Below the pieces are notes generated by a model. The model worked only from the letters and a program-made list of their open reading frames with translations, did no database searches and was not told where the DNA came from. A stretch of 64,000 nucleotides of DNA from a virus. Below, piece by piece: positions 1,223-19,292 of this stretch. How positions within the stretch are numbered: the first letter of the stretch is position 1; every line of letters starts with the position of its first letter. The translations under genes and the position numbers were made by a program. The stretch lies in UHGV virus genome UHGV-0170778; one strand, written 5' to 3'.

Positions 1223-2005
1223 ATGTCATTCAAAGCAATCAATCCTGATGCTTTGACGAAGTTTAATTCTGCAATATCTTCAGAGTTTATAAAAATGTAT
1301 GAAGGCTTTGTTTTATCAGACATACAAACTGATAGGATGAAGCCTTCATCTAAATCATTTGCTCCGTCAAGTATTAGATGTATGAGAAAAAGTTGGTTTC
1401 GGTTGAGAGGTAAAGAACCAGATAAGCTGAAATCTGTTGATGCTACATTAGAATTCAAAGCTAAGTTAGGTACAGCTATTCACGAAAATATACAAAGTAC
1501 ACTTTCATCTAATCTAGCAGAGAACTGGGTAGATACAAAGGATTACTTAAATAGTATACAGAATGAATGTAGCTGGCTTAAACAAGCTAAATTTGATGCG
1601 CATGGATTTGAAACTCGAGTTGAACTTTTTGAAATTCCTATCAGATTTAGTGTAGACGGAATTTTGAAACTTCAAAATGAACTATATCTACTAGAAATAA
1701 AAACATTAGATTTTGGGGATTTCAATGGTCTCACAGATATAAAGCAAAGTCATATAGATCAGGTAAAAACATATTTAACTTTATTAAATCTAGAAAATGC
1801 AATCGTTATGTATGTTGACAGACAATATGGATCTGTTAAGTGTTACAGCTATAGCATAAAGCAGTATGAACGAGATGAAATATTCAACAATATGCATCAT
1901 GTACTCAATTGTGTTGAAAGTAATATTGCACCTGACAGATTAGATTATTCTGATTACATGTGTACAAATTGTCCGTACAAGAAAAGTTGTAAGGAGTGGG
2001 GCTAA
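1223..2005 (+). CDS. PD-(D/E)XK nuclease with Cas4/RecB-like Cys cluster
   Basis: 260 aa. LLEIKTL matches the (D/E)xK core. One N-terminal Cys (IRCMRKSW) plus C-terminal CTNCPYKKSC, the pattern seen in Cas4/AddB-type Fe-S nucleases. Stop overlaps the dnaX start (TAATG). Confidence 0.55.
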   Translation: MSFKAINPDALTKFNSAISSEFIKMYEGFVLSDIQTDRMKPSSKSFAPSSIRCMRKSWFRLRGKEPDKLKSVDATLEFKAKLGTAIHENIQSTLSSNLAENWVDTKDYLNSIQNECSWLKQAKFDAHGFETRVELFEIPIRFSVDGILKLQNELYLLEIKTLDFGDFNGLTDIKQSHIDQVKTYLTLLNLENAIVMYVDRQYGSVKCYSYSIKQYERDEIFNNMHHVLNCVESNIAPDRLDYSDYMCTNCPYKKSCKEWG

Positions 2006-4365
2006 TGTCAAATAAACTTTCTTCAAAATCTCTGGCAGTAAAATATAGACCTAAAACATTTGAAGATGTAGTGGAACAGAGTGTAGTTACAGACATACTT
2101 AAAAACATTGCTACAAATTCTGATAATCTTACTCTCCGTAATTTTCTTTTGATTGGGTCTGCTGGAACAGGAAAGACTACTTGTGCAAGAATACTTGCAA
2201 ATGAATTGAATCATGGTGAGGGAGAACCTATTGAAATTGACGCAGCTTCTAACAATGGCGTAGACGCAATGCGAGGTATTGTAGATCAAGCTAAAACTTA
2301 TCCAATTGTAGGTAAGTATAAAGTGTTCATAATTGATGAATGTTTCCATAAAAATACACTTGTTGATACACCATTAGGCAAACGAAGAATTTCTGATATC
2401 AAACAAAATGATTTAGTTTACAATATGACTGGGACTGCTAGTGTTTCAAAGGTTTTGAAAAATAAAGTAAAAACTGATAACCTTGTATTAGTCTATGTTA
2501 ATGGTTCATCTATTTTAACAACAAAGGATCATCTATTCTTTACAAGTGATGGGTGGGTCAAAGCAAAAGATTTAGTTAAAGGTGATGTATTGTATGATAA
2601 CAAAACAATGCGAAGTTTGCGGCAAAATGTTTCAGTCTTATCCAAGCGACAATCGCAAAGCTTGCAGCAAGGAATGTGGGGAAATTCTTCGAGCAAAAAA
2701 CCTACAGAAATTTCTTTCAGAGAGACCAAAAACAGGATATACAAAAAAGTGTCCGATCTGTGGGAAAGTCTTTTATACACCTCAGTCAGTGAATTCGATA
2801 ACTTGTTCAAGCAAATGTTCCTATATTTACAAAAAACAACAAGGAATTTCAAAGAAGCAGACAGATATGTATGCTTCGCACAGGCAGGAATTTATTTGTC
2901 CTGTTTGCGGGAAGCATATGAACATCCGGAAGAGCGATCATCGGAAATATTGTTCAGTAGAATGTTCGGTGAAATCTCATCATATAGCCGAATTGCACCC
3001 AGATACCCAACTGCCCGCGAAGTCTTGTGTGATATGTGGAAATATGTTTATTCCGAAATCAAAACAAACGCAGACTTGCTCAAAGAGCTGCAGATATATT
3101 CTGATTGCTTCCAAAACACGAGGAAAAAAGAATCCAGAAGCGTCTGCACGGATGAAAGCTCACAACCCGATGGAAAATCCCGAAACTTTTGCGAAGATGA
3201 AAGCAACCAAGATGAAGAATGGGACATGGTCAAAGCCTTGTGTGAAGCGTGGCGGAAATGGGCATTTTACCAAGCCGCAGATACATCTTCATCAAGCATT
3301 AGGGAATGGATGGGTCTTAGAATATCCAGTGAAAACACATGTTTCAAAGCAGAACGAGATGCACTATCCTACGAATTACAAACTAGACCTTGCATTGCCG
3401 GAAAAGAAGCTTGGAGTCGAGGTGGATGGGAAAGACCACAATACGAAATCTCAACAGTTATTAGATCAGAAGAAAGTAACTTGCTTGGAGAATTTAGGGT
3501 GGACTGTGTTGAGGTTTTCAAACGAGGAAATAATGAACAACATTTCGAGCGTTATTTCAGTAATTCAGAATTATGTTCAGAAACTGTAGATATGTATGAT
3601 TTACAGATAGCAGGACATCCATCTTATTTCGTTGAAGGCGTTCTGGTTCATAATTGTCATGCCCTTAGTAACAGTTCTTGGCAAGCGTTATTGAAAGTTT
3701 TAGAAGAAGCTCCAGCTGCAAGTGTGTTCATGTTAGCTACAACAAATCCTGAAAAAATACCAGAAACAATTTTATCAAGAGTAATGACATTTCAGTTGTC
3801 TAAGATAAGTTTGTCTGGTATCTTTAATCGACTGAAGTATGTTTTAGATAAAGAAATTGAATCTGGAAGAAATATAAAATATGAAGAAGATGCAGTAAAC
3901 TTCATCGCTAAATTAGGTAATGGAGGTATGCGAGACAGCCTTACATTGCTAGATACAGCACTTTCTTATAGCAACAATATAACAATGGAGAATGTAGAAA
4001 AAAGTCTTAATCTTCCTAATTACAATGACTATTTTTCATTGCTTCAATCTATTGCAAAGAAAGACAACAAATCAATTATTGAAACAATATCTTCTGTTTA
4101 TAATTCAGGAGTTAATTTTGTAAAATGGTTTGAAGGTTTTCATTCATTTGTAATTAACATTGTTAAGTACATTAACATCCAAGATATTAACATGACAATG
4201 ATTCCAAGTACTTACTTAGATAAAATTTCTAAATATGGCCCTGCTCATTGTACAATATGCTTAAAACTGTCTAATATTCTAGTTAAACTTATTCATGAAT
4301 TAAAGTCAACAAACTATCAACAAGAAATGGCTATAACTTACTTATGTTCTGCTAAGAAAGGATAA
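2005..4365 (+). CDS. dnaX: DnaX-like clamp loader ATPase (tau/gamma family), interrupted by an intein
   Basis: KYRPKTFEDVV box, Walker A GSAGTGKTT, Walker B KVFIIDE. After the intein it resumes with CHALSNSSWQALLKVLEE, SRC-like ILSRV and sensor-2 GGMRDSLTLLD. The track start at 1996 is GTG; ATG at 2005 follows AAGGAG. Confidence 0.8.
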   Translation: MSNKLSSKSLAVKYRPKTFEDVVEQSVVTDILKNIATNSDNLTLRNFLLIGSAGTGKTTCARILANELNHGEGEPIEIDAASNNGVDAMRGIVDQAKTYPIVGKYKVFIIDECFHKNTLVDTPLGKRRISDIKQNDLVYNMTGTASVSKVLKNKVKTDNLVLVYVNGSSILTTKDHLFFTSDGWVKAKDLVKGDVLYDNKTMRSLRQNVSVLSKRQSQSLQQGMWGNSSSKKPTEISFRETKNRIYKKVSDLWESLLYTSVSEFDNLFKQMFLYLQKTTRNFKEADRYVCFAQAGIYLSCLREAYEHPEERSSEILFSRMFGEISSYSRIAPRYPTAREVLCDMWKYVYSEIKTNADLLKELQIYSDCFQNTRKKESRSVCTDESSQPDGKSRNFCEDESNQDEEWDMVKALCEAWRKWAFYQAADTSSSSIREWMGLRISSENTCFKAERDALSYELQTRPCIAGKEAWSRGGWERPQYEISTVIRSEESNLLGEFRVDCVEVFKRGNNEQHFERYFSNSELCSETVDMYDLQIAGHPSYFVEGVLVHNCHALSNSSWQALLKVLEEAPAASVFMLATTNPEKIPETILSRVMTFQLSKISLSGIFNRLKYVLDKEIESGRNIKYEEDAVNFIAKLGNGGMRDSLTLLDTALSYSNNITMENVEKSLNLPNYNDYFSLLQSIAKKDNKSIIETISSVYNSGVNFVKWFEGFHSFVINIVKYINIQDINMTMIPSTYLDKISKYGPAHCTICLKLSNILVKLIHELKSTNYQQEMAITYLCSAKKG
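2341..3654 (+). other. Intein (438 codons) inserted after the Walker B DE of DnaX
   Basis: Begins Cys (CFHKNTLVDTPLG, block A) with a TxxH block B (TTKDH). Ends VDMYDLQIAGHPSYFVEGVLVHN followed by the +1 Cys (blocks F/G). Removing it restores IIDE|CHALS, the canonical DnaX DExx box. The middle ~330 codons carry no recognisable LAGLIDADG or HNH motif in frame. Confidence 0.75.
2594..3589 (+). CDS. Zn-ribbon / Vsr(DUF559)-like homing-endonuclease-like gene nested in the +1 frame inside the intein
   Basis: +1 frame relative to dnaX/intein. Four CxxCGK...CSxxC zinc-ribbon modules. C-terminal KLGVEVDGKDHN...ENLGWTVLRF is the Vsr/DUF559-type nuclease signature. Paralogous to ORFs 34242..35939(-) and 36652..38211(+). 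Start uncertain (GTG 2582, ATG 2585 or ATG 2594; AAGGTG upstream). Confidence 0.6.
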   Translation: MITKQCEVCGKMFQSYPSDNRKACSKECGEILRAKNLQKFLSERPKTGYTKKCPICGKVFYTPQSVNSITCSSKCSYIYKKQQGISKKQTDMYASHRQEFICPVCGKHMNIRKSDHRKYCSVECSVKSHHIAELHPDTQLPAKSCVICGNMFIPKSKQTQTCSKSCRYILIASKTRGKKNPEASARMKAHNPMENPETFAKMKATKMKNGTWSKPCVKRGGNGHFTKPQIHLHQALGNGWVLEYPVKTHVSKQNEMHYPTNYKLDLALPEKKLGVEVDGKDHNTKSQQLLDQKKVTCLENLGWTVLRFSNEEIMNNISSVISVIQNYVQKL

Positions 4366-8280: not shown

Positions 8281-9228
8281 ATGGTATATTATTATAGTGG
8301 TGGATTAACTAGAACAATGGCAGATATGTTGAAAAATGTACCTAATTTCGAGCCTATTGCTGTTCTAGTTTCTCAGCTTGATAGAAATTCAATTAAAAAG
8401 ATGTTTGAATATCAAGAAGAAGGTATAGTAAAGAAGCTATTTATTGATAGCGGTGCATATTCCGTACATACAGGAAAAGCTAAAGTAGACATTGATGAGT
8501 ATATTAGCTATGTAAATTCTATTGACGACCATATTGATGCAGTAGCTCAAGTTGATACTATTCCTGGAACATTTGGAAAGCCAAAATCTAAAGAAGATTA
8601 TGAAAACTCTTCTAAGAAATCGTGGGAGAACTTCTTGTATATGTATTACAAGATGAAGTCTCCAGAAAAGCTAATTCCTGTTTTTCATTATGGCGAGTCT
8701 TTTGACACTCTGAGAAATATGTTAGAGTGGAGAGACAAAGACGGAAATAAGCTAACTTATTTAGGTATCTCTCCCGCAAATGATAGTGCGCAGAAAGTTA
8801 AAAATGAATACATGAAAAATGTGTATGATGTTATTGCTGAATCATCTAATCCAAATGTAAGAACACATTTATTTGGAATGACATCATTAGATGCTTTATC
8901 TAAGTATCCTGCATATTCTGCAGACAGTGTATCTCATCGACTTATTGGCGGATACAATAAAATAATGGTACCTGAATTTGGTGTAATTTCACTTTCCAAG
9001 AGAAGTCGTACAACTAAATCTAAATCAAATATGAATTTCTTAGATACAGCAGACGAAATGGCTATTGCAAAATTGAAGAAATATTTAGATTCGTTAAATA
9101 TTACATTAGAGCAATGCGAAGATCATCACGCAGCAAGGTGTGTTGTTACAATGTGTACTATTGCTAAACACCTAAAAGATCATCCGTATCAGCCTACAAA
9201 TGTATGCAAGTCAAAGCGCCTTTTCTAA
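8281..9228 (+). CDS. dpdA: DpdA-like (tRNA-guanine transglycosylase-family) DNA 7-deazaguanine transglycosylase
   Basis: 315 aa. LFIDSGAYS near the N-terminus (DpdA-type DSGAF-like motif as I recall it). HLFGMTSLD TIM-barrel-like motif. C-terminal Cys/His cluster HHAARCVVTMCTIAKH. Directly upstream of a full preQ0/preQ1 biosynthesis operon. Confidence 0.5.
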   Translation: MVYYYSGGLTRTMADMLKNVPNFEPIAVLVSQLDRNSIKKMFEYQEEGIVKKLFIDSGAYSVHTGKAKVDIDEYISYVNSIDDHIDAVAQVDTIPGTFGKPKSKEDYENSSKKSWENFLYMYYKMKSPEKLIPVFHYGESFDTLRNMLEWRDKDGNKLTYLGISPANDSAQKVKNEYMKNVYDVIAESSNPNVRTHLFGMTSLDALSKYPAYSADSVSHRLIGGYNKIMVPEFGVISLSKRSRTTKSKSNMNFLDTADEMAIAKLKKYLDSLNITLEQCEDHHAARCVVTMCTIAKHLKDHPYQPTNVCKSKRLF

Positions 9229-9315
9229 AATCACCTTATATAGGGCAAGAAGTTAATATCTTCCAGTTTTGTAACTACTCTGACAGCCTGGAAGTTAAAT
9301 AATAAAAATAAGGAG

Positions 9316-10068
9316 ATGGTTGTATTGAATAACAATCTAAAGTCAAAAATTAAATCAGAGTGTAGAAATTGGAAGCTGTTGCTACAAGCAGTACCTTCAG
9401 GTGTTATGGCGATGTTCGCTGTATCAGTAATCCTCATGAATTTACTTGCAAATAAGGAAATCAATACAGGATTAAGCTGGTTAGCACTTGATTGTGGAAT
9501 TACTGTTTCGTGGCTCAGCTTTCTTTGTATGGATATGCTAACTAAACGGTTTGGTGCAAAAGCTGCTTTTCAGCTATCTATCACTGCTTGTGCTATCAAT
9601 CTTGTTGTTTGTGGTATTCTTTTTGTAGTATCCAAAATTCCTGGGAACTGGGGAGCATTCTATACATATCAAATTGATGTAGCGAATGAATCACTTAATG
9701 ATACCGTTGGAGGTACATGGTATGTTCTTTTAGGTAGTACTATTGCTTTTGTTTGCTCTTCTTTAACTAATTGTGTTTTGAATGCAGCTGTTGGTAAACT
9801 ATATAGAAAGAATAATTTTCTAGCGTACGCACTTCGTTCTTATAGTTCTACATTGATTGCACAGTTTGTTGATAACTTTATTTTTGCATTGATTGTTAGC
9901 CATACATTCTTTGGATGGAGTATGCTACAATGCGTAACTTGTGCATTTACTGGATGTATTGTAGAATTGATGTGTGAAGTAGTATTCAGTCCTATTGGAT
10001 ACAAAGTATGCAAAAAGTGGGAGTTTGACAATGTAGGATCACTCTATTTGGATATTGTAAATAGATAA
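9316..10068 (+). CDS. YhhQ/QPT-family queuosine-precursor transporter-like membrane protein
   Basis: 250 aa, strongly hydrophobic with several predicted TM helices. Sits inside the deazaguanine cluster. Start may be TTG 9325. Confidence 0.4.
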   Translation: MVVLNNNLKSKIKSECRNWKLLLQAVPSGVMAMFAVSVILMNLLANKEINTGLSWLALDCGITVSWLSFLCMDMLTKRFGAKAAFQLSITACAINLVVCGILFVVSKIPGNWGAFYTYQIDVANESLNDTVGGTWYVLLGSTIAFVCSSLTNCVLNAAVGKLYRKNNFLAYALRSYSSTLIAQFVDNFIFALIVSHTFFGWSMLQCVTCAFTGCIVELMCEVVFSPIGYKVCKKWEFDNVGSLYLDIVNR

Positions 10069-10080
10069 GGAGAATATAAT

Positions 10081-10761
10081 ATGATCAAAGTTGTAGTTAC
10101 AGGTTCTGCAAAAGGTATCGGAAAATCTCTAGTACAGAAAATCGATTTTGAATTATCTCGTCAGCCAGAAGATTATATGATTTACGGTATTGATGTAGAA
10201 AAAAGCAATTTGGATAAATGCTTAAGAAATTACACACACATCATTGCAGATGTGGGTGAAATGTATGAATTGCCTGATATCGAAGATGTAAACTATCTGG
10301 TAAACAATGCAGGTGTACAGAATAGTAAAGATGATATCAGAACTAATTTGATTGGTACTATCAATTGTACAAACAAATATGGTATTCAGCCAAGCATCCG
10401 ATCTATTGTGAATGTGTCTTCTGTAAGTGCACACAATGGAGCAGAATTCCCAGAATATGTAGCAAGTAAAGGCGGTATGCTGTCTTATACAGTTGCAGTT
10501 GCTAAGATGATTGCAAAATTTGGTGCAACTTGTAACAGCATATCTCCGGGTGGAGTAATTACTGATTTGAACAATATCGTTATGAATGATAAAGACAAAT
10601 GGGCTGCAATCATGGAAATGACTCCGCTTAAGAAATGGGCAACAAGAGAAGAAATTGCAGAATGGATTTATTTCATGCTGTTTGTGAATAAAAGTATGAC
10701 TGGACAGGATGTTTTAATTGACAACGGTGAAATGTTCAACCATACTTTCGTTTGGGACTAA
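10081..10761 (+). CDS. short-chain dehydrogenase/reductase (SDR)
   Basis: N-terminal [13 protein letters not shown] (TGxxxGIG), NNAG motif, catalytic YxxxK (YVASK). Confidence 0.65.
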
Positions 10762-10774
10762 TAAGGAGGATAAA

Positions 10775-11278
10775 ATGATCTACAAGGAACAAAAAACAGA
10801 CGGAATTACACTTTTAGGTAATCAGAATACAAAATATAAGTACGATTACGATCCGACTGTTCTAGAAAAATTTGAAAAGAAATTTGAAGATTCAAATGAA
10901 GACGAACAAGTAGTTAGCTTGGATTGTTTTGAGTTTGTGTCAAGATGTCCAATTACAGGTCAGCCGGATTTAGCAACAATTCATATTGCATATATTCCAA
11001 ACAAGTATATGGTAGAATCCAAATCATTGAAATTATACTTGTTCTCATTCCAGCAACATGGAGATTTTCATGAATCTTGTGTTCATATGATCATGCAGGA
11101 TCTTGTAGACTTGATTCATCCTAAGTATCTAGAAATCTATGGGGACTTTAATTCTCGAGGCGGGATTTCAATTCTTCCTTGGAGCTGTTATGCAGATGAA
11201 AATCACAAAGACTTGAAAAAGCAACGTCAGATTCAAGTTATGCAATATAACATGAGTCACAGACCTCGTACTTCTTGA
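10775..11278 (+). CDS. queF: NADPH-dependent 7-cyano-7-deazaguanine reductase QueF
   Basis: [13 protein letters not shown] matches the QueF E(x)3CP(x)TGQPD motif. ATG 10775 follows AAGGAGG; the track start at 10718 is TTG. Confidence 0.8.
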
Positions 11279-11362
11279 TTAACATATAGCATCAGACAGT
11301 GCTGTACACCTAGCTGATGTTAAAATATGAATATTTCAAAAACAGAAAGGAGACATAATATT

Positions 11363-12082
11363 ATGTCTAACAAAACTAATGAAAAAGCAGTTATTCTAAG
11401 TTCTGGAGGAGTTGATTCTACTACTTGCGTAGGTATTGCTGTAGAGCGTTTCGGAAAAGAAAATGTTTGCACAGTTTCAGTCTTCTATAACCAGAAACAT
11501 TCAAAAGAACTTGAATGCGCTCAGAAAGTAGCAAATCATTATGGTGTAGACCATACAGTTATTGATTTGTCAGGTACACATATTTTTGATGATAGCGAGT
11601 GTCCTTTGCTGAAAGGTAGCAATAAAAATATTCGTCATGAAAGTTATGCAGACCAAATTGCTAAAGACGGAGAAGGTATGGTAGAAACATATGTACCATT
11701 TAGAAATGGTCTTATGCTTTCTTCAGTAGCTGCATTTGCAGTTTCAAAGTATCCGGACAGCATTGTACATATTTATCTTGGCGCCCATGCAGATGATGCA
11801 GCTGGAAGTGCTTATGCAGACTGCTCTAAAGAGTTCACAGACGCAATGTACGAAGCTATTTCTATCGGTACTTATGATAAAGTAAAAGTAGAAGCTCCTC
11901 TAGTTAATATGAATAAAGCAGAGGTTGTAAAAACTGGACTTGAGCTTAATGTTCCATACAGATTGACTTGGAGCTGCTATGAAGGCGGTGATGTTCAGTG
12001 CGGTACATGCGGTACTTGTATCGACAGAAAAAATGCATTCAAGGCAAACGGAGTAGAAGATCCAGTTCCATATAAGGAGTAA
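11363..12082 (+). CDS. queC: 7-cyano-7-deazaguanine synthase QueC
   Basis: LSSGGVDSTTC PP-loop. C-terminal CGTCGTC zinc-binding Cys cluster. ATG 11363 follows AAAGGAG. Confidence 0.85.
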   Translation: MSNKTNEKAVILSSGGVDSTTCVGIAVERFGKENVCTVSVFYNQKHSKELECAQKVANHYGVDHTVIDLSGTHIFDDSECPLLKGSNKNIRHESYADQIAKDGEGMVETYVPFRNGLMLSSVAAFAVSKYPDSIVHIYLGAHADDAAGSAYADCSKEFTDAMYEAISIGTYDKVKVEAPLVNMNKAEVVKTGLELNVPYRLTWSCYEGGDVQCGTCGTCIDRKNAFKANGVEDPVPYKE

Positions 12083-12084
12083 AT

Positions 12085-12510
12085 ATGAAAGAATATGTAA
12101 CTTGGGGCAATGTAGAACGATTTGTTTTAGAGCTTGCTGATATTTCAAATAAATGTAATCGTCAATTTGATGGCGTTTACGGCCTACCTAGAGGTGGTCT
12201 TGTTATTGCTGTTATGGTTTCGCATGTACTCGATATTCCTCTTCTATCGGCACCTACTTCTAAGAGCTTGATTGTAGATGATATTTGCGATTCTGGAGAG
12301 TCATTACTTCATTATATCAAGAATACAAGTTCTGAGTACGAAGAAGCAAAAAGACCGTACATTGCAACTATATTTTGGAATGATAATGACTTAGGGATAA
12401 AACCAGATTTCTCTATGTTTAAGAAAAAAGATAGATGGATTGTGTTTCCTTGGGAAAAAGAACAACTACTCGTAGATATAGATGAAACAGAAAGGATTTG
12501 TCATGTATAA
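12085..12510 (+). CDS. Gpt-like (xanthine-guanine) phosphoribosyltransferase
   Basis: 141 aa. YVTWGNV, LPRGGLVIAV, LIVDDICDSGES and WIVFPWE parallel E. coli Gpt YIVTWDM, VSRGGLVPGA, IVIDDLVDTGGT and WIEQPWD. Confidence 0.6.
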   Translation: MKEYVTWGNVERFVLELADISNKCNRQFDGVYGLPRGGLVIAVMVSHVLDIPLLSAPTSKSLIVDDICDSGESLLHYIKNTSSEYEEAKRPYIATIFWNDNDLGIKPDFSMFKKKDRWIVFPWEKEQLLVDIDETERICHV

Positions 12511-12943
12511 ACTTAAAACTCGAATTGATTTTGAAGCAGCGCATAGACTCTATAATGTTAATACATATTCAGAAGAGTGTTCTGATAATCTTCACGGACA
12601 TTCTTATAAAGTTGATGTTGTAGTAGGAAGAGAAACTTTAAACAATGCAGATATGGTAATTGATTTCAAATTGTTGAAAGAGCGTTTACGAAAATGTATT
12701 GTAGATAAATTTGATCATTCATGCATTTTATGCATAGACGACCCTCTTGCAAAATATGTAAATAAATATTGCAAAAAAGTACATATTGTTCCAGAAAGTC
12801 CTACAGCAGAATACATGACAGCTGACTTTGCAGATAGAATTTCTTCTGAATTGATTAAAATAGACCCAGAAGTTGTTGTTCTTTCTGTATCCGTACATGA
12901 AACTGAGAATAATATAGCTACCTGGGAGAAATCTGATAAATGA
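12503..12943 (+). CDS. queD: 6-carboxy-5,6,7,8-tetrahydropterin synthase QueD
   Basis: AAHRL...CxxxHGH (NLHGHSYKVDV) zinc motif. Start ATG 12503 with AAAGGA SD. Confidence 0.8.
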   Translation: MYKLKTRIDFEAAHRLYNVNTYSEECSDNLHGHSYKVDVVVGRETLNNADMVIDFKLLKERLRKCIVDKFDHSCILCIDDPLAKYVNKYCKKVHIVPESPTAEYMTADFADRISSELIKIDPEVVVLSVSVHETENNIATWEKSDK

Positions 12944-13629
12944 AAATAAATGAAATTTTTTATAGCATTGAGGGAGAAGGCATCAGAGCTGGACATCCTT
13001 GTGTATTTATTCGAACATTCGGTTGTAATTTGAATTGTAGTTACTGTGATTCTCAGTATGCTTGCAAAGGTGATAATTACAAAGAGATGTCTATTGTAGA
13101 TATCTTAGATGAGGTAAAAAAGTATAATACTAGATATGTCACGATTACTGGTGGGGAACCATTGATTCAAGATGAAGAAGAAATGTCTTCATTGATTATG
13201 TGCTTGCTATCGTATAATTACTATGTAAATATTGAAACTAATGGTGCTGCAGATCTAGCATATTACAAAGAGATACGATGGAATGAAATTCCTCTCATTT
13301 GTGAAGGACAACTAATATTTACAATGGATTGGAAATCTGATTCTTGTGGTATGAGTAAATTCATGAATAAAGATAATCTGTCTTGTTTGACTGGATGCGA
13401 TGTACTTAAGTTTGTTGTAGGAAGCGAACAAGATCTAATTCAAATGAAAGAGCTATTGCAATCAGATAAATACCTATATAGTCGAGTTAATATATTTGTT
13501 AGCCCTGTATTTGGTGAAATTGATCCTAAATATATAGTTGAGTTTCTTAAACAAAACGGATTAGATAAAGTAAGATTGCAGCTACAGATTCACAAATTTA
13601 TTTGGGACCCGAATGAGCGAGGTGTATAA
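12940..13629 (+). CDS. queE: 7-carboxy-7-deazaguanine synthase QueE (radical SAM)
   Basis: [10 protein letters not shown] radical-SAM cluster loop and TGGEPL motif. Confidence 0.85.
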
Positions 13630-13630
13630 T

Positions 13631-14314
13631 ATGAATAATAAATTAAAAGTAACAACAAAGAAAAACGAGAATGTTACAGCTTCTTGTGCAAATGAAGAAT
13701 ACATGCAATGTATTTATGATGGGAAGCGTCATTTATCTGAGGAAAACTTCAATAAAATCAAAGAAGCAACAAAGATGATACTTGAAGCACTCGGAGAAGA
13801 TGTAAATCGAGAAGGGTTAAGAGAAACTCCTAAACGCGTTGCAAAATATTATGATGAAGTTTTTGAAGGCATTAGATATACTAATGATGAAATTGCTGAA
13901 AAGTTCAATAAATGTTTTGAGGATGTAGAAACAGGAGACCTTGTTGTTGTAGGAGATATTCCTATTTTTAGTTTCTGCGAGCATCATATGGCGCTTATTT
14001 ACAATGCAAAAGTAAGCGTAGGATATATTCCAAACGGCAAAGTAATTGGTCTCAGCAAGATTGCAAGAATTGCAGATATGGTAAGTAAGCGACTTCAGCT
14101 ACAAGAAAGAATTGGGACTGATATTGCTGAAATCTTATCTAAGATACTTGACACAGAAGATATCATTGTTGTTATTGAAGGAGAACATTCTTGTATGACA
14201 GCAAGAGGTGTCAAAAAGCCTGGGACTAGAACTCGGACAAGCGCTATTCGAGGTGCATTTGATTCAGATTCAGACCTTCGTCAAGAGTTCTACAATTTGG
14301 TTTTGTCTAAGTAA
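13631..14314 (+). CDS. folE: GTP cyclohydrolase I FolE
   Basis: FSFCEHHM active-site motif and GLSKIAR motif. ATG 13631 follows GAGGTG. Confidence 0.85.
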
Positions 14315-16837: not shown

Positions 16838-17374
16838 ATGGAAGATATCAAAACTTTTGATTATTCTGAAAACGGGTACAATAACGACCCATTATATAGG
16901 AAACAAAAAGAAGGCGTCTCCAAAATGAGGGCGTCTCTTTTGGCGTCCTCAGATAATAGTTCTATGATGGGAGCTATACAGGATATAACTGTAATGCGAA
17001 TATATCATCAGCTTGCTAGAATAATAAGATATACAGAGCTAATAGATAAACTTGAAGATAAACTGTATGAAGGGATAAATTTCGCCTTAGATACAACAGA
17101 TGCGTCGGATCCAAGTGTTTGGCTTATGCTGATGAAGACTCAAAAACAACTACAAGAGACTATGATTGAGTCTCAGAAACTAATCGACCCGTACATAACT
17201 ATGCTTCAAAACAGCGAAAAGTTTGTGAATGCAGTACAAACAGTAGAACCTGCAGAATCAGACATAATTGATGCTAGAAAACGTGACAATATAAGAATTG
17301 CAGCAAGATCTGTTTTGAACGAGTTAGATCAATTAGAATCTAGTCAAGACGAAACGAGCGATTCAGATGACTGA
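16838..17374 (+). CDS. hypothetical protein (possible small terminase subunit, by position only)
   Basis: 178 aa with acidic C-terminus, directly upstream of and overlapping terL. Confidence 0.25.
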   Translation: MEDIKTFDYSENGYNNDPLYRKQKEGVSKMRASLLASSDNSSMMGAIQDITVMRIYHQLARIIRYTELIDKLEDKLYEGINFALDTTDASDPSVWLMLMKTQKQLQETMIESQKLIDPYITMLQNSEKFVNAVQTVEPAESDIIDARKRDNIRIAARSVLNELDQLESSQDETSDSDD

Positions 17375-19292
17375 AACTGAGCAGATAGTAGACAGAATAA
17401 AGAAAATATATTCGTCCTCTACTAATGATCAAAAGAAGTATCTACGACAGATACTTGAAGAGTTAAGTGAATTTGGATATTCTGAAACATATCATAATAT
17501 ATGGTTAGCTGATTACAAAGAGATTCCAGTCGATAAGGAAACTTTCTTATGCGACCCAGAATACTTAGGTTCGTCTAATAATAATGGCAAATCAATATAT
17601 CCTGCTTGGCGAGATGTAATGGATGAGTTAGACCGAACAGGCAATCAATATTATGAAATTGTTTTTACTGGTGCAACTCGTACAGGCAAAACAAGTACAG
17701 CGGTTTCTGATGCTTCATATAATCTTTATAAACTAATGTGTTTAAGAGATCCACAGACTTATTTCGGATTGAAAAAAGTTTCTAGAATATCTGTATTTTT
17801 CTTCAATCTTACACAAACATTAGCAAGAGGTGTAGCTTTCAAAGAATTTATATCAACGCTTAATTCAAGTCCTTGGTTCCATAAACATGGACATTTCACA
17901 AAAAGTGAATCTAACCCTACATATGTTCCTGAAGGTGAACAAATAGAAATAACATATGGTTCTGATGCATCACACGCACTCGGGAAAGCCACATATCTCG
18001 TTATTTTCGACGAGTGCAACTTTGCACAGGCAGGAATCAAAGATGTAAACAAAGCAAAAGCCAGAATGAAAGAAAAGTACGATACACTTGTTGCTCGTGT
18101 AACTGGTACATTTGTGAAACAGGGTGAAGTATTTGGTAAAATCTATGTAATTAGTTCCAAACGAAGTGATTCAGACTTCATGGAAGAGTATGTTGAAGCA
18201 CAGCGACAAGCTGGAAATAAGCATATGTATATATTTGATAAGCCACAATGGGAAGTTTGGCCGCCTTCTAAATACACTTCATCAGAAAAGTTTCCAATTG
18301 CTCTAGGTGGCAAGAAACTGAAGAGTTTTGTAGTCCCAGATGACCAAAACAATGAAAATGGAATAGCAGAACTGAAAAAGCAAGGATATGAAATATTAAA
18401 TGTTCCTTTAGATAACAAAACGAGATTTCTTTCTGATTTCGATGTAGCTTTGAGGGACATAGCAGGAATTACTGTTCAAGGTTCTATGACATTTATATCT
18501 CAAGAAGTATTGGATGAAAATATAACAAAAGAAAGAAAGAATCCATTCTACACTGATATAGTTCAAATAGGCACAAAAGATGATTATTCGCTTGAAGAGT
18601 TCTTCCATATTGAAGAGGTAGACAATAGGTACAAGAAATACCCAATGTATATACATCTTGACTTGTCGTTGAATACAGATAAAACAGGTATATCTGGTAT
18701 ATGTCAATCTGGTAGAAAAGATATTGATATGCCTGACAATAAAACAATGTCACAGCCGACATTTACACATATATTTTCAGTTAGTTTAGAAGCACCTAGA
18801 GGCGATAAAATACCATATGATAAAATAACTAGATTTATATGCTGGCTACGAAATCAAGGATTCTATATAGCTGGAATAAGTCGAGATCAATTTCAAAGTG
18901 AGTATATGGGCCAGCTGCTAGAGGCACAGGGGTTTAATGTAGATAAATTATCGCTTGATAGAACACCTGACGGATATATGGCATTTAGGTCTATATTGTT
19001 AGAACATAGAATTGATTTACTTAATGTAGATTTATTGAATCATGAATTAACAAGGTTAGAAAGAGATGCAGTGACAGGTAAGGTAGATCATAGAGTCGGA
19101 GAAAGCAAGGATATGTCAGATTCAGTTGCAGGTTCTGTCTGGAATGCAACTTTGAAAAATGCACCTATTCCTGTATCTAGAAAGTCTGTTGCTTCTGCAA
19201 TAGGTAAAGTTAATTCTGTTGGAAGTGCTAGCAGGTATGGAGGTGCTTGTTCTCCAAATACCTTTTCTAGTATATACAAAAATTATAGATAG
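17367..19292 (+). CDS. terL: terminase large subunit
   Basis: 641 aa. Walker A FTGATRTGKTS. C-terminal nuclease region with Asp-rich motifs (IHLDLSLNTDKTG). Confidence 0.75.
   Translation: MTETEQIVDRIKKIYSSSTNDQKKYLRQILEELSEFGYSETYHNIWLADYKEIPVDKETFLCDPEYLGSSNNNGKSIYPAWRDVMDELDRTGNQYYEIVFTGATRTGKTSTAVSDASYNLYKLMCLRDPQTYFGLKKVSRISVFFFNLTQTLARGVAFKEFISTLNSSPWFHKHGHFTKSESNPTYVPEGEQIEITYGSDASHALGKATYLVIFDECNFAQAGIKDVNKAKARMKEKYDTLVARVTGTFVKQGEVFGKIYVISSKRSDSDFMEEYVEAQRQAGNKHMYIFDKPQWEVWPPSKYTSSEKFPIALGGKKLKSFVVPDDQNNENGIAELKKQGYEILNVPLDNKTRFLSDFDVALRDIAGITVQGSMTFISQEVLDENITKERKNPFYTDIVQIGTKDDYSLEEFFHIEEVDNRYKKYPMYIHLDLSLNTDKTGISGICQSGRKDIDMPDNKTMSQPTFTHIFSVSLEAPRGDKIPYDKITRFICWLRNQGFYIAGISRDQFQSEYMGQLLEAQGFNVDKLSLDRTPDGYMAFRSILLEHRIDLLNVDLLNHELTRLERDAVTGKVDHRVGESKDMSDSVAGSVWNATLKNAPIPVSRKSVASAIGKVNSVGSASRYGGACSPNTFSSIYKNYR

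Follow-up and report, generated by a model that had tools for sequence, protein, structure and literature searches.

Why does a virus that encodes 7-deazaguanine modification of its DNA carry a purine phosphoribosyltransferase (PRT) gene in the middle of the pathway operon? The gene in question encodes 141 amino acids at positions 12085–12510 of a 64,000-nucleotide stretch of the virus genome UHGV-0170778 (hereafter the window), and a preliminary description of that stretch had placed it between queC and queD. This position is confirmed, as the flanking genes encode QueC (PF06508) and QueD (PF01242). The published components of phage 7-deazaguanine modification are FolE, QueC, QueD, QueE, QueF, the DpdA subfamilies, and DpdL, DpdM and DpdN (tailoring). 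The word "phosphoribosyl" is absent from the central papers on the subject, and full-text searches on phosphoribosyltransferase and phage deazaguanine modification returned no discussion of the PRT gene in the papers covered. GenBank records label the gene "phosphoribosyltransferase", and in one Campylobacter phage record it also bears the label "queuosine biosynthesis protein", so its link to the pathway has at least been noticed informally. What is new here is a purine PRT without flexible loop II that is dedicated to the DNA-modification pathway, of which it is an unlisted but widely conserved component. The PRT recurs in many of the clusters, forms one protein with FolE throughout a phage subfamily, and has a homologue in every lineage with known complete guanine replacement.

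Recurrence of the PRT in phage 7-deazaguanine clusters

To define the distribution of the gene, IMG/VR was scanned, which gave 308 viral stretches with a relative of the PRT; 80 of these 308 loci were analyzed. Genes around the PRT were counted with iterated profiles at IMG/VR and GenBank loci, 84 in total, many of which are truncated and which are not phylogenetically independent of one another. FolE was detected at 72 loci, QueE at 70, QueC at 61, QueD at 59 and DpdA at 57. QueF was left out of the counts because its iterated profile drifted onto FolE, a T-fold homologue. The DpdA is of the immuto type (DpdA3) in 39 of the 57 PRT loci with a detectable DpdA. Co-occurrence with dpdA in other phages, a check proposed in the preliminary description, is borne out.

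Loop-less and long-loop PRTs were assigned to their classes by the spacing between the RGG and DD motifs described below. Among viral copies of the loop-less class, 74/77 have a que gene at a distance of 10 kb or less, against a background in which FolE occurs in 406 of 50,697 GenBank phage records (~0.8%). Tblastn searches of GenBank phages with three PRT queries gave matches confined to FolE-encoding groups. These groups comprise Queuovirinae-like phages of Pseudomonas, Stenotrophomonas, Xanthomonas, Vibrio and Sphingomonas, the immuto Flavobacterium phages, Cellulophaga phage phiST and its relatives, Brevundimonas phages, a Synechococcus phage, PA5oct-like jumbo phages, and 15 Campylobacter records of the Firehammervirus type, including CP220. 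Two short "phage" fragments among the matches resemble host gpt.

The gene order queC-PRT-queD-queE-folE is retained across lineages in which PRT identity has fallen to 45–58%. Furthermore, a PRT homologue is present in all three phage groups with known complete replacement of guanine, namely CP220, phiST and immuto. The PRT is thus an accessory gene that turns up repeatedly in the clusters with which phages modify DNA with 7-deazaguanine. The functional link to the modification pathway that had been proposed from the tight operon is strongly supported by the que linkage of the loop-less viral copies.

A purine PRT of archaeal type that lacks flexible loop II

The gene and the protein segments discussed in this section are as follows.

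12085..12510, + strand: loop-less type I purine PRT, 141 aa (open reading frame, PF00156, PHROG 8995, PDB 1vdm, AlphaFold2, Foldseek)
12187..12198, + strand: pyrophosphate (PPi)-binding loop P35-R36-G37-G38, aligned with S36-R37-G38-G39 of Gpt (alignments A1, A2 and Gpt/xanthine-guanine PRT)
12244..12255, + strand: junction residues 54–57, site of a core strand and flexible loop II in other purine PRTs; about 22 residues are absent
12268..12303, + strand: phosphoribosyl pyrophosphate (PRPP) motif L62-IVDDICDSGES-73, aligned with D88, D89, D92 and T93-T96 of Gpt (alignments)
12436..12456, + strand: C-terminal hood W118-IVFPWE-124, with W118 aligned with Trp134 of Gpt; W118, W123 and E124 invariant

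The open reading frame begins with ATG and ends with TAA, and it contains each of the three motifs by which it was recognized initially, LPRGGLVIAV (residues 34–43), IVDDICDSGES (63–73) and WIVFPWE (118–124). The protein scored 31.5 bits against Pfam family PF00156 (Pribosyltran), above the gathering score of 26.3, and matched PHROG 8995 ("phosphoribosyl transferase") with an E value of 5.6e-15. At E≤1e-3 it has 259 database homologues. The AlphaFold2 model (pLDDT 88, pTM 0.80) has a Rossmann-like alpha/beta core. Foldseek found 311 PDB matches to this model at E≤1e-3, the best 50 of which are all PRTs, and matches to 6-oxopurine PRTs have TM scores of 0.65–0.72. By sequence, the nearest solved protein is 1vdm of P. 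horikoshii (E 1e-12 with the single sequence, 4e-24 with the family profile), followed by Sulfolobus GpT-1 and GpT-2 and then by bacterial xanthine-guanine PRTs (XGPRTs). All 34 PDB matches of the family profile, like those of the protein itself, are purine PRTs, including the XGPRTs of E. coli, Yersinia and H. pylori and hypoxanthine-guanine PRTs. The archaeal-type 6-oxopurine PRTs of the 1vdm/GpT-2 group are the closest by both sequence and structure, and they share the WIVFPWE-type hood.

The protein had been called Gpt-like. This is correct at the level of fold and family, but the match to PRK09177, the NCBIfam equivalog for bacterial xanthine PRT, is 36.9 bits where the cut-off is 138, and the protein is closer to the archaeal purine PRTs. 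Judged by these scores, "Gpt" is a resemblance and not a membership.

Conservation was examined in 58 close relatives (A1) and in 37 diverse relatives with identities down to 35% (A2). Residues W7, R36-G37-G38, D65, I67-C68-D69, G71, P107, W118 and W123-E124 are invariant in A1/A2, and D66 is nearly invariant in the 37 sequences of A2. The PRPP motif LIVDDICDSGES (residues 62–73) satisfies the expected pattern of a hydrophobic strand, an acidic pair and D-[ST]-G-x-[ST]. In the alignment they correspond to the residues of Gpt that form the PPi loop, bind ribose (the acidic pair) or phosphate (the turn), supply the third Asp of the PRPP motif and stack on the base (Trp). From E. coli XGPRT structures we take Trp134 of Gpt to stack on the base and Lys115 to bind O6. 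In the base pocket of the window PRT the stacking Trp is kept as W118; the position of Lys115 is occupied by Asn99, and by Lys in most relatives. The 17 residues of the tail (125–141) are predicted with low confidence and are not found in most close relatives.

The most unusual structural feature of the PRT, which is absent from the preliminary description, is the loss of flexible loop II. Alignment with E. coli Gpt leaves a 22-column gap in the window PRT. Relative to the PRT family profile, Yersinia XGPRT has a 22-residue insertion and residues 54–74 of 1vdm are unmatched. The AlphaFold2 model has no strand pair or hairpin between the helix at residues 37–49 and the strand at 61–68. In well-studied 6-oxopurine PRTs flexible loop II closes the active site. 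The loop is not part of the PF00156 definition; its loss marks a variant, and membership in the superfamily stands.

Association of the PRT with FolE and the GTP-to-CDG block

Among the pathway genes, folE lies nearest to the PRT gene in 48 of 71 non-redundant architectures, followed by queE (10), queC (9), queD (2) and dpdA (2). Six of the loci examined (L002, which is phage VpKK5, and L041, L065, L081, L107 and L110) encode a fusion in which the PRT is the N-terminal domain and FolE follows it, and so do many phages of Pseudomonas and Stenotrophomonas. The products of VpKK5 orf32 (L002:5917-6819) and of the other fusion genes of Queuovirinae-like phages, annotated only as "GTP cyclohydrolase", have two domains, a loop-less PRT and a C-terminal FolE; the central papers on phage deazaguanine modification do not mention the extra domain of the fusion. 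In the window, queD and queE lie between the PRT gene and folE.

The pair also stays together where the cluster is split. In Brevundimonas phage StAshley, QueC-QueD-QueE-hypothetical-DpdA lie 5' of the polymerase, and FolE and the PRT remain together after ribonucleotide reductase and deoxynucleoside monophosphate (dNMP) kinase. The PRTs of phiST and of Brevundimonas phages are of the long-loop class. They are found amid ribonucleotide reductase and (putative) dNMP-kinase genes (L084:9989-14085 in phiST, L085:3650-8465 in StAshley) and do not adjoin QueD, QueE or DpdA.

Stand-alone PRTs from marine loci (L016, L033, L047, L066 and others) possess a conserved C-terminal tail, ..[DE]DS.[TA]IQDY... 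This tail aligns with the linker and the N-terminal FolE helix of the PRT-FolE fusions, which hints at either gene fission or a peptide that may dock on FolE.

Five syntenic IMG/VR relatives (L254–L258) have the same backbone as the window gene for gene, and their DpdA proteins are 58–73% identical to that of the window. They differ from the window only in the cassette that follows the clamp loader (~9900-13200 in each). Three of the five cassettes consist of DpdA alone, one of QueF-DpdA-QueC and one, in L258, of QueF-DpdA-QueC-YhhQ-SDR, where SDR is a short-chain dehydrogenase/reductase. PRT, QueD, QueE and FolE were found in none of the five relatives. The window cassette has the full nine genes, with PRT, QueD, QueE and FolE contiguous. 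Because the PRT is absent from these relatives together with QueD, QueE and FolE, it is gained and lost with the GTP-consuming steps that lead to 7-carboxy-7-deazaguanine (CDG) and not with finishing or insertion of the base (DpdA, QueC, QueF). By their content the cassettes form a graded series, with deazaguanine modification that depends on salvage at one end and is entirely de novo at the other. The preliminary description had named an equal frequency of the gene in relatives without a que cluster among the grounds for refuting the link. Such a frequency was not observed: the loop-less family is almost confined to que/dpdA clusters, and the syntenic relatives without folE, queD and queE also lack the PRT.

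Cellular relatives of the loop-less PRT

Cellular genomes were scanned with one genome per species and the single pattern VDDICD[ST]G, so that all counts in this section describe that motif class among the matches listed. Long-loop homologues came from Ca. Actinomarina and Thermoprotei, and 63/65 have no que gene nearby. These appear to be housekeeping enzymes. Ten loop-less copies were among the matches listed, of which four are que-linked and six are not. The four que-linked copies are probably viral or prophage DNA. The contigs of the remaining six have been attributed to DPANN archaea, to Patescibacteria and to a metagenome-assembled genome (MAG) of Clostridia, and the neighbors of the PRT there look cellular and include SMC and, syntenic in two MAGs, an RNase D-like gene with a HAD gene. 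On the MAG contigs L087, L089 and L091–L093 (Parvarchaeota, Patescibacteria and Woesearchaeota-type archaea) the loop-less PRT has the same motifs and no que genes nearby.

By their motifs, the cellular loop-less PRTs cannot be separated from the PRTs of phages. Since the same motifs occur without que context, the loop-less form is probably an ordinary active salvage enzyme. Provided that the MAGs are binned correctly, we infer that a working purine salvage enzyme was recruited by phages, and the phage family may have descended from the loop-less PRTs of DPANN and candidate phyla radiation (CPR) type.

Possible roles of the PRT

FolE uses one GTP for each deazaguanine made, and DpdA frees one guanine for each base inserted. 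We give about an even chance to the reading in which the PRT converts guanine and PRPP to GMP, resupplying GTP for FolE and clearing the guanine released by DpdA. Exchange of DNA guanine for preQ0 or preQ1 by DpdA would liberate free guanine one-for-one, the PRT would join this guanine to PRPP to give GMP, and host Gmk and Ndk would raise GMP to GTP. The GTP would then enter FolE, one per deazaguanine, so that guanine would serve as the carrier in a closed cycle with PRPP as the net (carbon) input. Removal of guanine would also take away the leaving group of DpdA, which would otherwise compete for re-insertion, and would favor complete exchange.

This reading follows from the purine-PRT family, a pocket that is invariant across end products, the adjacency or fusion to FolE and the pattern of gain and loss. 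The pocket motifs are constant though the end product is preQ1 in the window, preQ0 in Queuovirinae and fdPreQ1 in immuto, a constancy that, at the level of motifs, points to a shared ligand. Guanine as the substrate, catalysis without loop II and the direction of flux are inferred, while the fold and family, the conserved catalytic motifs, the loss of loop II and the association with the pathway, with FolE and with the GTP-to-CDG block are shown. Of the three roles proposed initially, supply of guanine nucleotides to FolE is the one favored by FolE adjacency and fusion and by gain and loss with the GTP-to-CDG block. Detoxification of deazaguanine bases, another of the three, found no support. 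If guanine is recycled in this way, a closed guanine-carrier cycle would explain how very high replacement is both affordable and driven to completion.

Several observations weigh against guanine recycling. Resupply of GTP is the better supported half of the proposal; clearing of the leaving group is weaker because the relatives with DpdA alone, which also release guanine, have no PRT. GMP is not the direct substrate of FolE, so the PRT-FolE fusion joins steps that are not consecutive. Most hosts already own Gpt or Hpt. The flexible loop II is missing, and full PRT activity is therefore an assumption; Asn99 replaces the presumed O6-binding Lys of Gpt. TubE, a proven CDG:PRPP transferase, appears to fall in the same GpT-2-like group, and the MazG-like enzyme that accompanies PRT and FolE in many loci looks like a means of nucleotide-pool manipulation.

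The main rival, which we regard as possible but on the whole unlikely, is that the PRT acts as TubE and ToyH do, combining CDG, preQ0 or preQ1 with PRPP to yield a 7-deazaguanine ribonucleotide. Kinases and ribonucleotide reductase would turn this product into deaza-dGTP, and the polymerase would incorporate it, a pre-replicative route beside or replacing the DpdA exchange. TubE of the tubercidin pathway in Streptomyces is a CDG-specific PRPP transferase, proven as such, and is encoded in a FolE/QueD/QueE cluster (PMC6112128). ToyH of the toyocamycin pathway is its proposed preQ0 counterpart. The authors of the TubE study aligned TubE with Sulfolobus 4Z1O (GpT-2), which is among the closest solved relatives of the window PRT. 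A MazG-like nucleoside triphosphate pyrophosphohydrolase (PF01503 superfamily) occurs with PRT and FolE in 33–34 of the first 80 viral loci (marine). In a reverse scan of immuto-type DpdA loci with adequate flanks, in which one lineage was sampled, the PRT was present at 49/49 and the MazG-like gene at 48/49, in the fixed order PRT-FolE-MazG-DpdA. The conserved FolE/PRT/MazG-like triad in marine loci of the DpdA3 type looks like a nucleotide-pool module and so favors this rival, as does the position of the phiST and StAshley PRTs amid ribonucleotide reductase and dNMP-kinase genes. Loss of loop II would free the N7/C8 edge of the base pocket for a substituent at C7. PRT homologues are found in all groups with complete replacement (the 15 CP220-type records, phiST and immuto), and to our knowledge other complete base replacements work through the nucleotide pool.

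Complete replacement of guanine was reported for phiST (dDG) and immuto (fdPreQ1) by Hutinet et al. (2023), who also cite it for CP220 (dADG). They ascribe complete replacement to DpdA3, the activity of which was not reconstituted in that study. It seems doubtful to us that the loop-less PRT opens a pre-replicative route to 7-deazaguanine nucleotides and that, in DpdA3-type phages, the MazG-like partner clears dGTP. If true, this would account for the fact that CP220, phiST and immuto replace guanine completely. It would also reopen the question of pre- versus post-replicative modification for complete replacement, and would challenge the current picture, in which phages always insert deazaguanine after replication.

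For the window locus, several observations speak against phosphoribosylation of a 7-deazapurine. DpdA accompanies the PRT and is not replaced by it, at 57/84 loci in the flanks examined and at 49/49 immuto-type loci, and if the PRT used the free base, it would compete with DpdA for substrate. In the window lineage, the PRT is missing from relatives that retain QueC, QueF and DpdA and so continue to process the end product. The enzyme to which the PRT is adjacent or fused is FolE, which opens the pathway, and not the one that ends it. The N7-facing Asp of 6-oxopurine PRTs is invariant though the end products span a carboxylate, a nitrile and an amine, and the motifs are the same as in cellular homologues without que context. 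The window DpdA is of the 9g/Queuovirinae type, which has been described as post-replicative (PMC6884629, PMC10516641). The role in 7-deazapurine phosphoribosylation suggested in the preliminary description draws support from the TubE/GpT-2 alignment and the marine MazG-like partner, but less than guanine supply does, given the tie to FolE and the pattern of gain and loss.

The PRT/FolE/MazG-like triad was seen together with a DpdA3-type enzyme in marine and freshwater immuto-like phages (L001, L015–L080 and L174–L253; for example L033:9295-11175).

The PRT fold can also be used for sensing, as in PyrR and PurR. A non-catalytic protein with PRPP, guanine or a guanine nucleotide as its ligand, which modulates FolE or acts as its scaffold and has lost transferase activity with the loop, would fit the deletion of loop II and a core strand, the repeated N-terminal fusion or tight proximity to FolE, and the marine stand-alone tail (..DS.TIQDY..) that aligns with the PRT-FolE linker. 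We nevertheless consider it improbable. All classes of residue that the chemistry requires are invariant across deep divergence, from the RGG loop and the DD pair with the third Asp to the SG.T that binds phosphate and the stacking Trp, the DPANN/CPR-type copies have no FolE nearby, as expected of salvage enzymes, and in the window queD and queE separate the PRT gene from folE. Genes of nucleotide metabolism are common in phages, and in phiST and the PA5oct-like jumbo phages the PRT is far from the que genes, so the gene might instead be generic nucleotide salvage that entered the operon by chance. We hold this to be very improbable, and the co-occurrence data largely refute it: que linkage of loop-less viral copies far exceeds the FolE base rate, fusions to FolE exist, the gene order persists at low PRT identity, and syntenic relatives without the de novo block are also without the PRT. 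A PRTase effector of defense or anti-defense was rejected, as the PADLOC match, which covers the PRPP motif, scored no more than 13.7 bits. The loop-less PRT is also an unusually small scaffold for nucleotide-analogue synthesis.

Operon layout and neighboring genes

The genes of the cluster and the ribosome-binding site of the PRT gene are as follows.

8281..9228, + strand: DpdA-type DNA guanine transglycosylase, 9g/Queuovirinae type (PHROG 887, E 1e-44)
9316..10068, + strand: YhhQ/Vut_1 queuosine-precursor transporter (PF02592, E 1e-22; TIGR00697 match under its cut-off)
10081..10761, + strand: SDR-family oxidoreductase (PF13561, PF00106)
10775..11278, + strand: QueF, preQ0 reductase, unimodular type (TIGR03139, 130 bits against a cut-off of 86.9)
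11327..12082 (gene-caller start 11363), + strand: QueC (PF06508, E 1e-55; TIGR00364, 172 bits against 150.3)
12074..12079, + strand: AAGGAG Shine-Dalgarno sequence of the PRT gene, within the final queC codons, 5 nt 5' of the ATG (sequence)
12503..12943 (longest open reading frame from 12482), + strand: QueD (PF01242, E 2.5e-26)
12940..13629, + strand: QueE, radical SAM, Clostridial type (TIGR03963, E 5.5e-72)
13613..14314 (gene-caller start 13631), + strand: FolE, GTP cyclohydrolase I (PF01227, E 6e-67)

All genes are on the + strand in the order dpdA-yhhQ-SDR-queF-queC-PRT-queD-queE-folE (8281-14314). The gene set of a DpdA system (DpdA, FolE, QueD, QueE and QueC, plus QueF for preQ1) is complete within this interval. 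The overlapping stops and starts noted initially were found at one end of the PRT gene but not at the other. How far the PRT gene runs into queD depends on the queD start: the overlap is 8 nt (ATGTATAA) with a start at 12503, which gene callers chose in five sister contigs, and 29 nt with a start at 12482. Between the queC stop (12080-12082) and the PRT ATG at 12085 there are 2 nt and no overlap. The window DpdA matched VpKK5 DpdA in phmmer (E ~1e-12), and no phmmer match was obtained between the window DpdA and immuto DpdA3.

A replication module with a sliding clamp, a Cas4-like nuclease, clamp loaders, a UvsX-like recombinase and RuvC lies 5' of the cluster, and small open reading frames followed by the terminase lie 3' of it. 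The identical PRT protein occurs in 60 blocks of public assemblies, on contigs of up to ~120 kb. Megablast of the cluster against GenBank phages gave no match, so the cluster has no close DNA relative among cultured phages. No homologue of MazG, dNMP kinase, ribonucleotide reductase, ThyA or PolA was found in the window with seeds from other phages, the window being about half of a ~120-kb genome. Synonymous-only differences between the PRT genes of sister contigs were considered as evidence of selection and dropped, since the look-up returns identical proteins by construction.

We know of no SDR in the preQ0/preQ1 pathway. The SDR gene at 10081-10761 adjoins yhhQ, and the pair recurs in the relative L258 (L258:12399-13133), which is without folE and queD. 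A trio of SDR, FolE and QueD of the tetrahydrobiopterin (BH4) type was rejected, as L258 carries the SDR with yhhQ yet has no folE or queD.

Two further genes were of note. The clamp-loader gene at 1996-4365 (+ strand, 789 aa) contains an intein, with Intein_splicing and HINT matches at about residues 116–553, inserted between the AAA and DNA_pol3_delta2/lid parts; in the syntenic relatives the protein is ~357 aa with no insert. In the sister contig L169 (L169:11284-12426, corresponding to window 17367-19292) the large terminase was called as two pieces of 302 and 364 aa, the second of which has a weak match to the NUMOD3 homing-endonuclease domain. The gene is intact (641 aa) in the window and the other sisters.

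Comparison with known systems

In the TubE and ToyH pathways, as in the window, a PRT gene lies inside a FolE/QueD/QueE(/QueC) cluster; in the window it occupies the queC-queD interval with queE and folE 3' of it. TubE (MG706975) and ToyH (ACF06639.1) are likened to the phage PRT only through their published descriptions. TubE has 194 aa, whereas the window PRT has 141 aa. Moreover, the TubE and ToyH pathways have no DpdA, and their products are free nucleoside antibiotics and not DNA.

The archaeal-type PRTs PH0095 (1vdm) and Sulfolobus solfataricus HGXPRT GpT-2 (4z1o, 4zfn, 5bqo) have the same small size and RGG loop as the phage PRT, and the xVDDxxDTG motif and C-terminal WIVFPWE hood are common to both. 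Their Foldseek TM score is ~0.68 and their identity to the window PRT is 32%. The solved archaeal-type proteins differ in having 20–26 extra residues between helix 2 and the strand of the PRPP motif (residues 54–74 in 1vdm, 59–84 in 4z1o). Unlike the phage PRT, they are housekeeping salvage enzymes with no que link.

E. coli Gpt (1NUL, 1A95-1A98) has the same fold (TM 0.65–0.69) and can be aligned collinearly over its full length, such that R37, D88, D89, D92 and W134 of Gpt correspond to R36, D65, D66, D69 and W118 of the PRT. Gpt is, however, only ~20% identical to the window PRT, and its Lys115 is replaced by Asn99.

In the Queuovirinae fusions (VpKK5 orf32, the "GTP cyclohydrolase" of PaMx25, NP1 and JG054, and MMDA13) the N-terminal ~125 aa are a homologous loop-less PRT with the same motifs. 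The PRT is joined to FolE in these proteins, whereas in the window it is free-standing.

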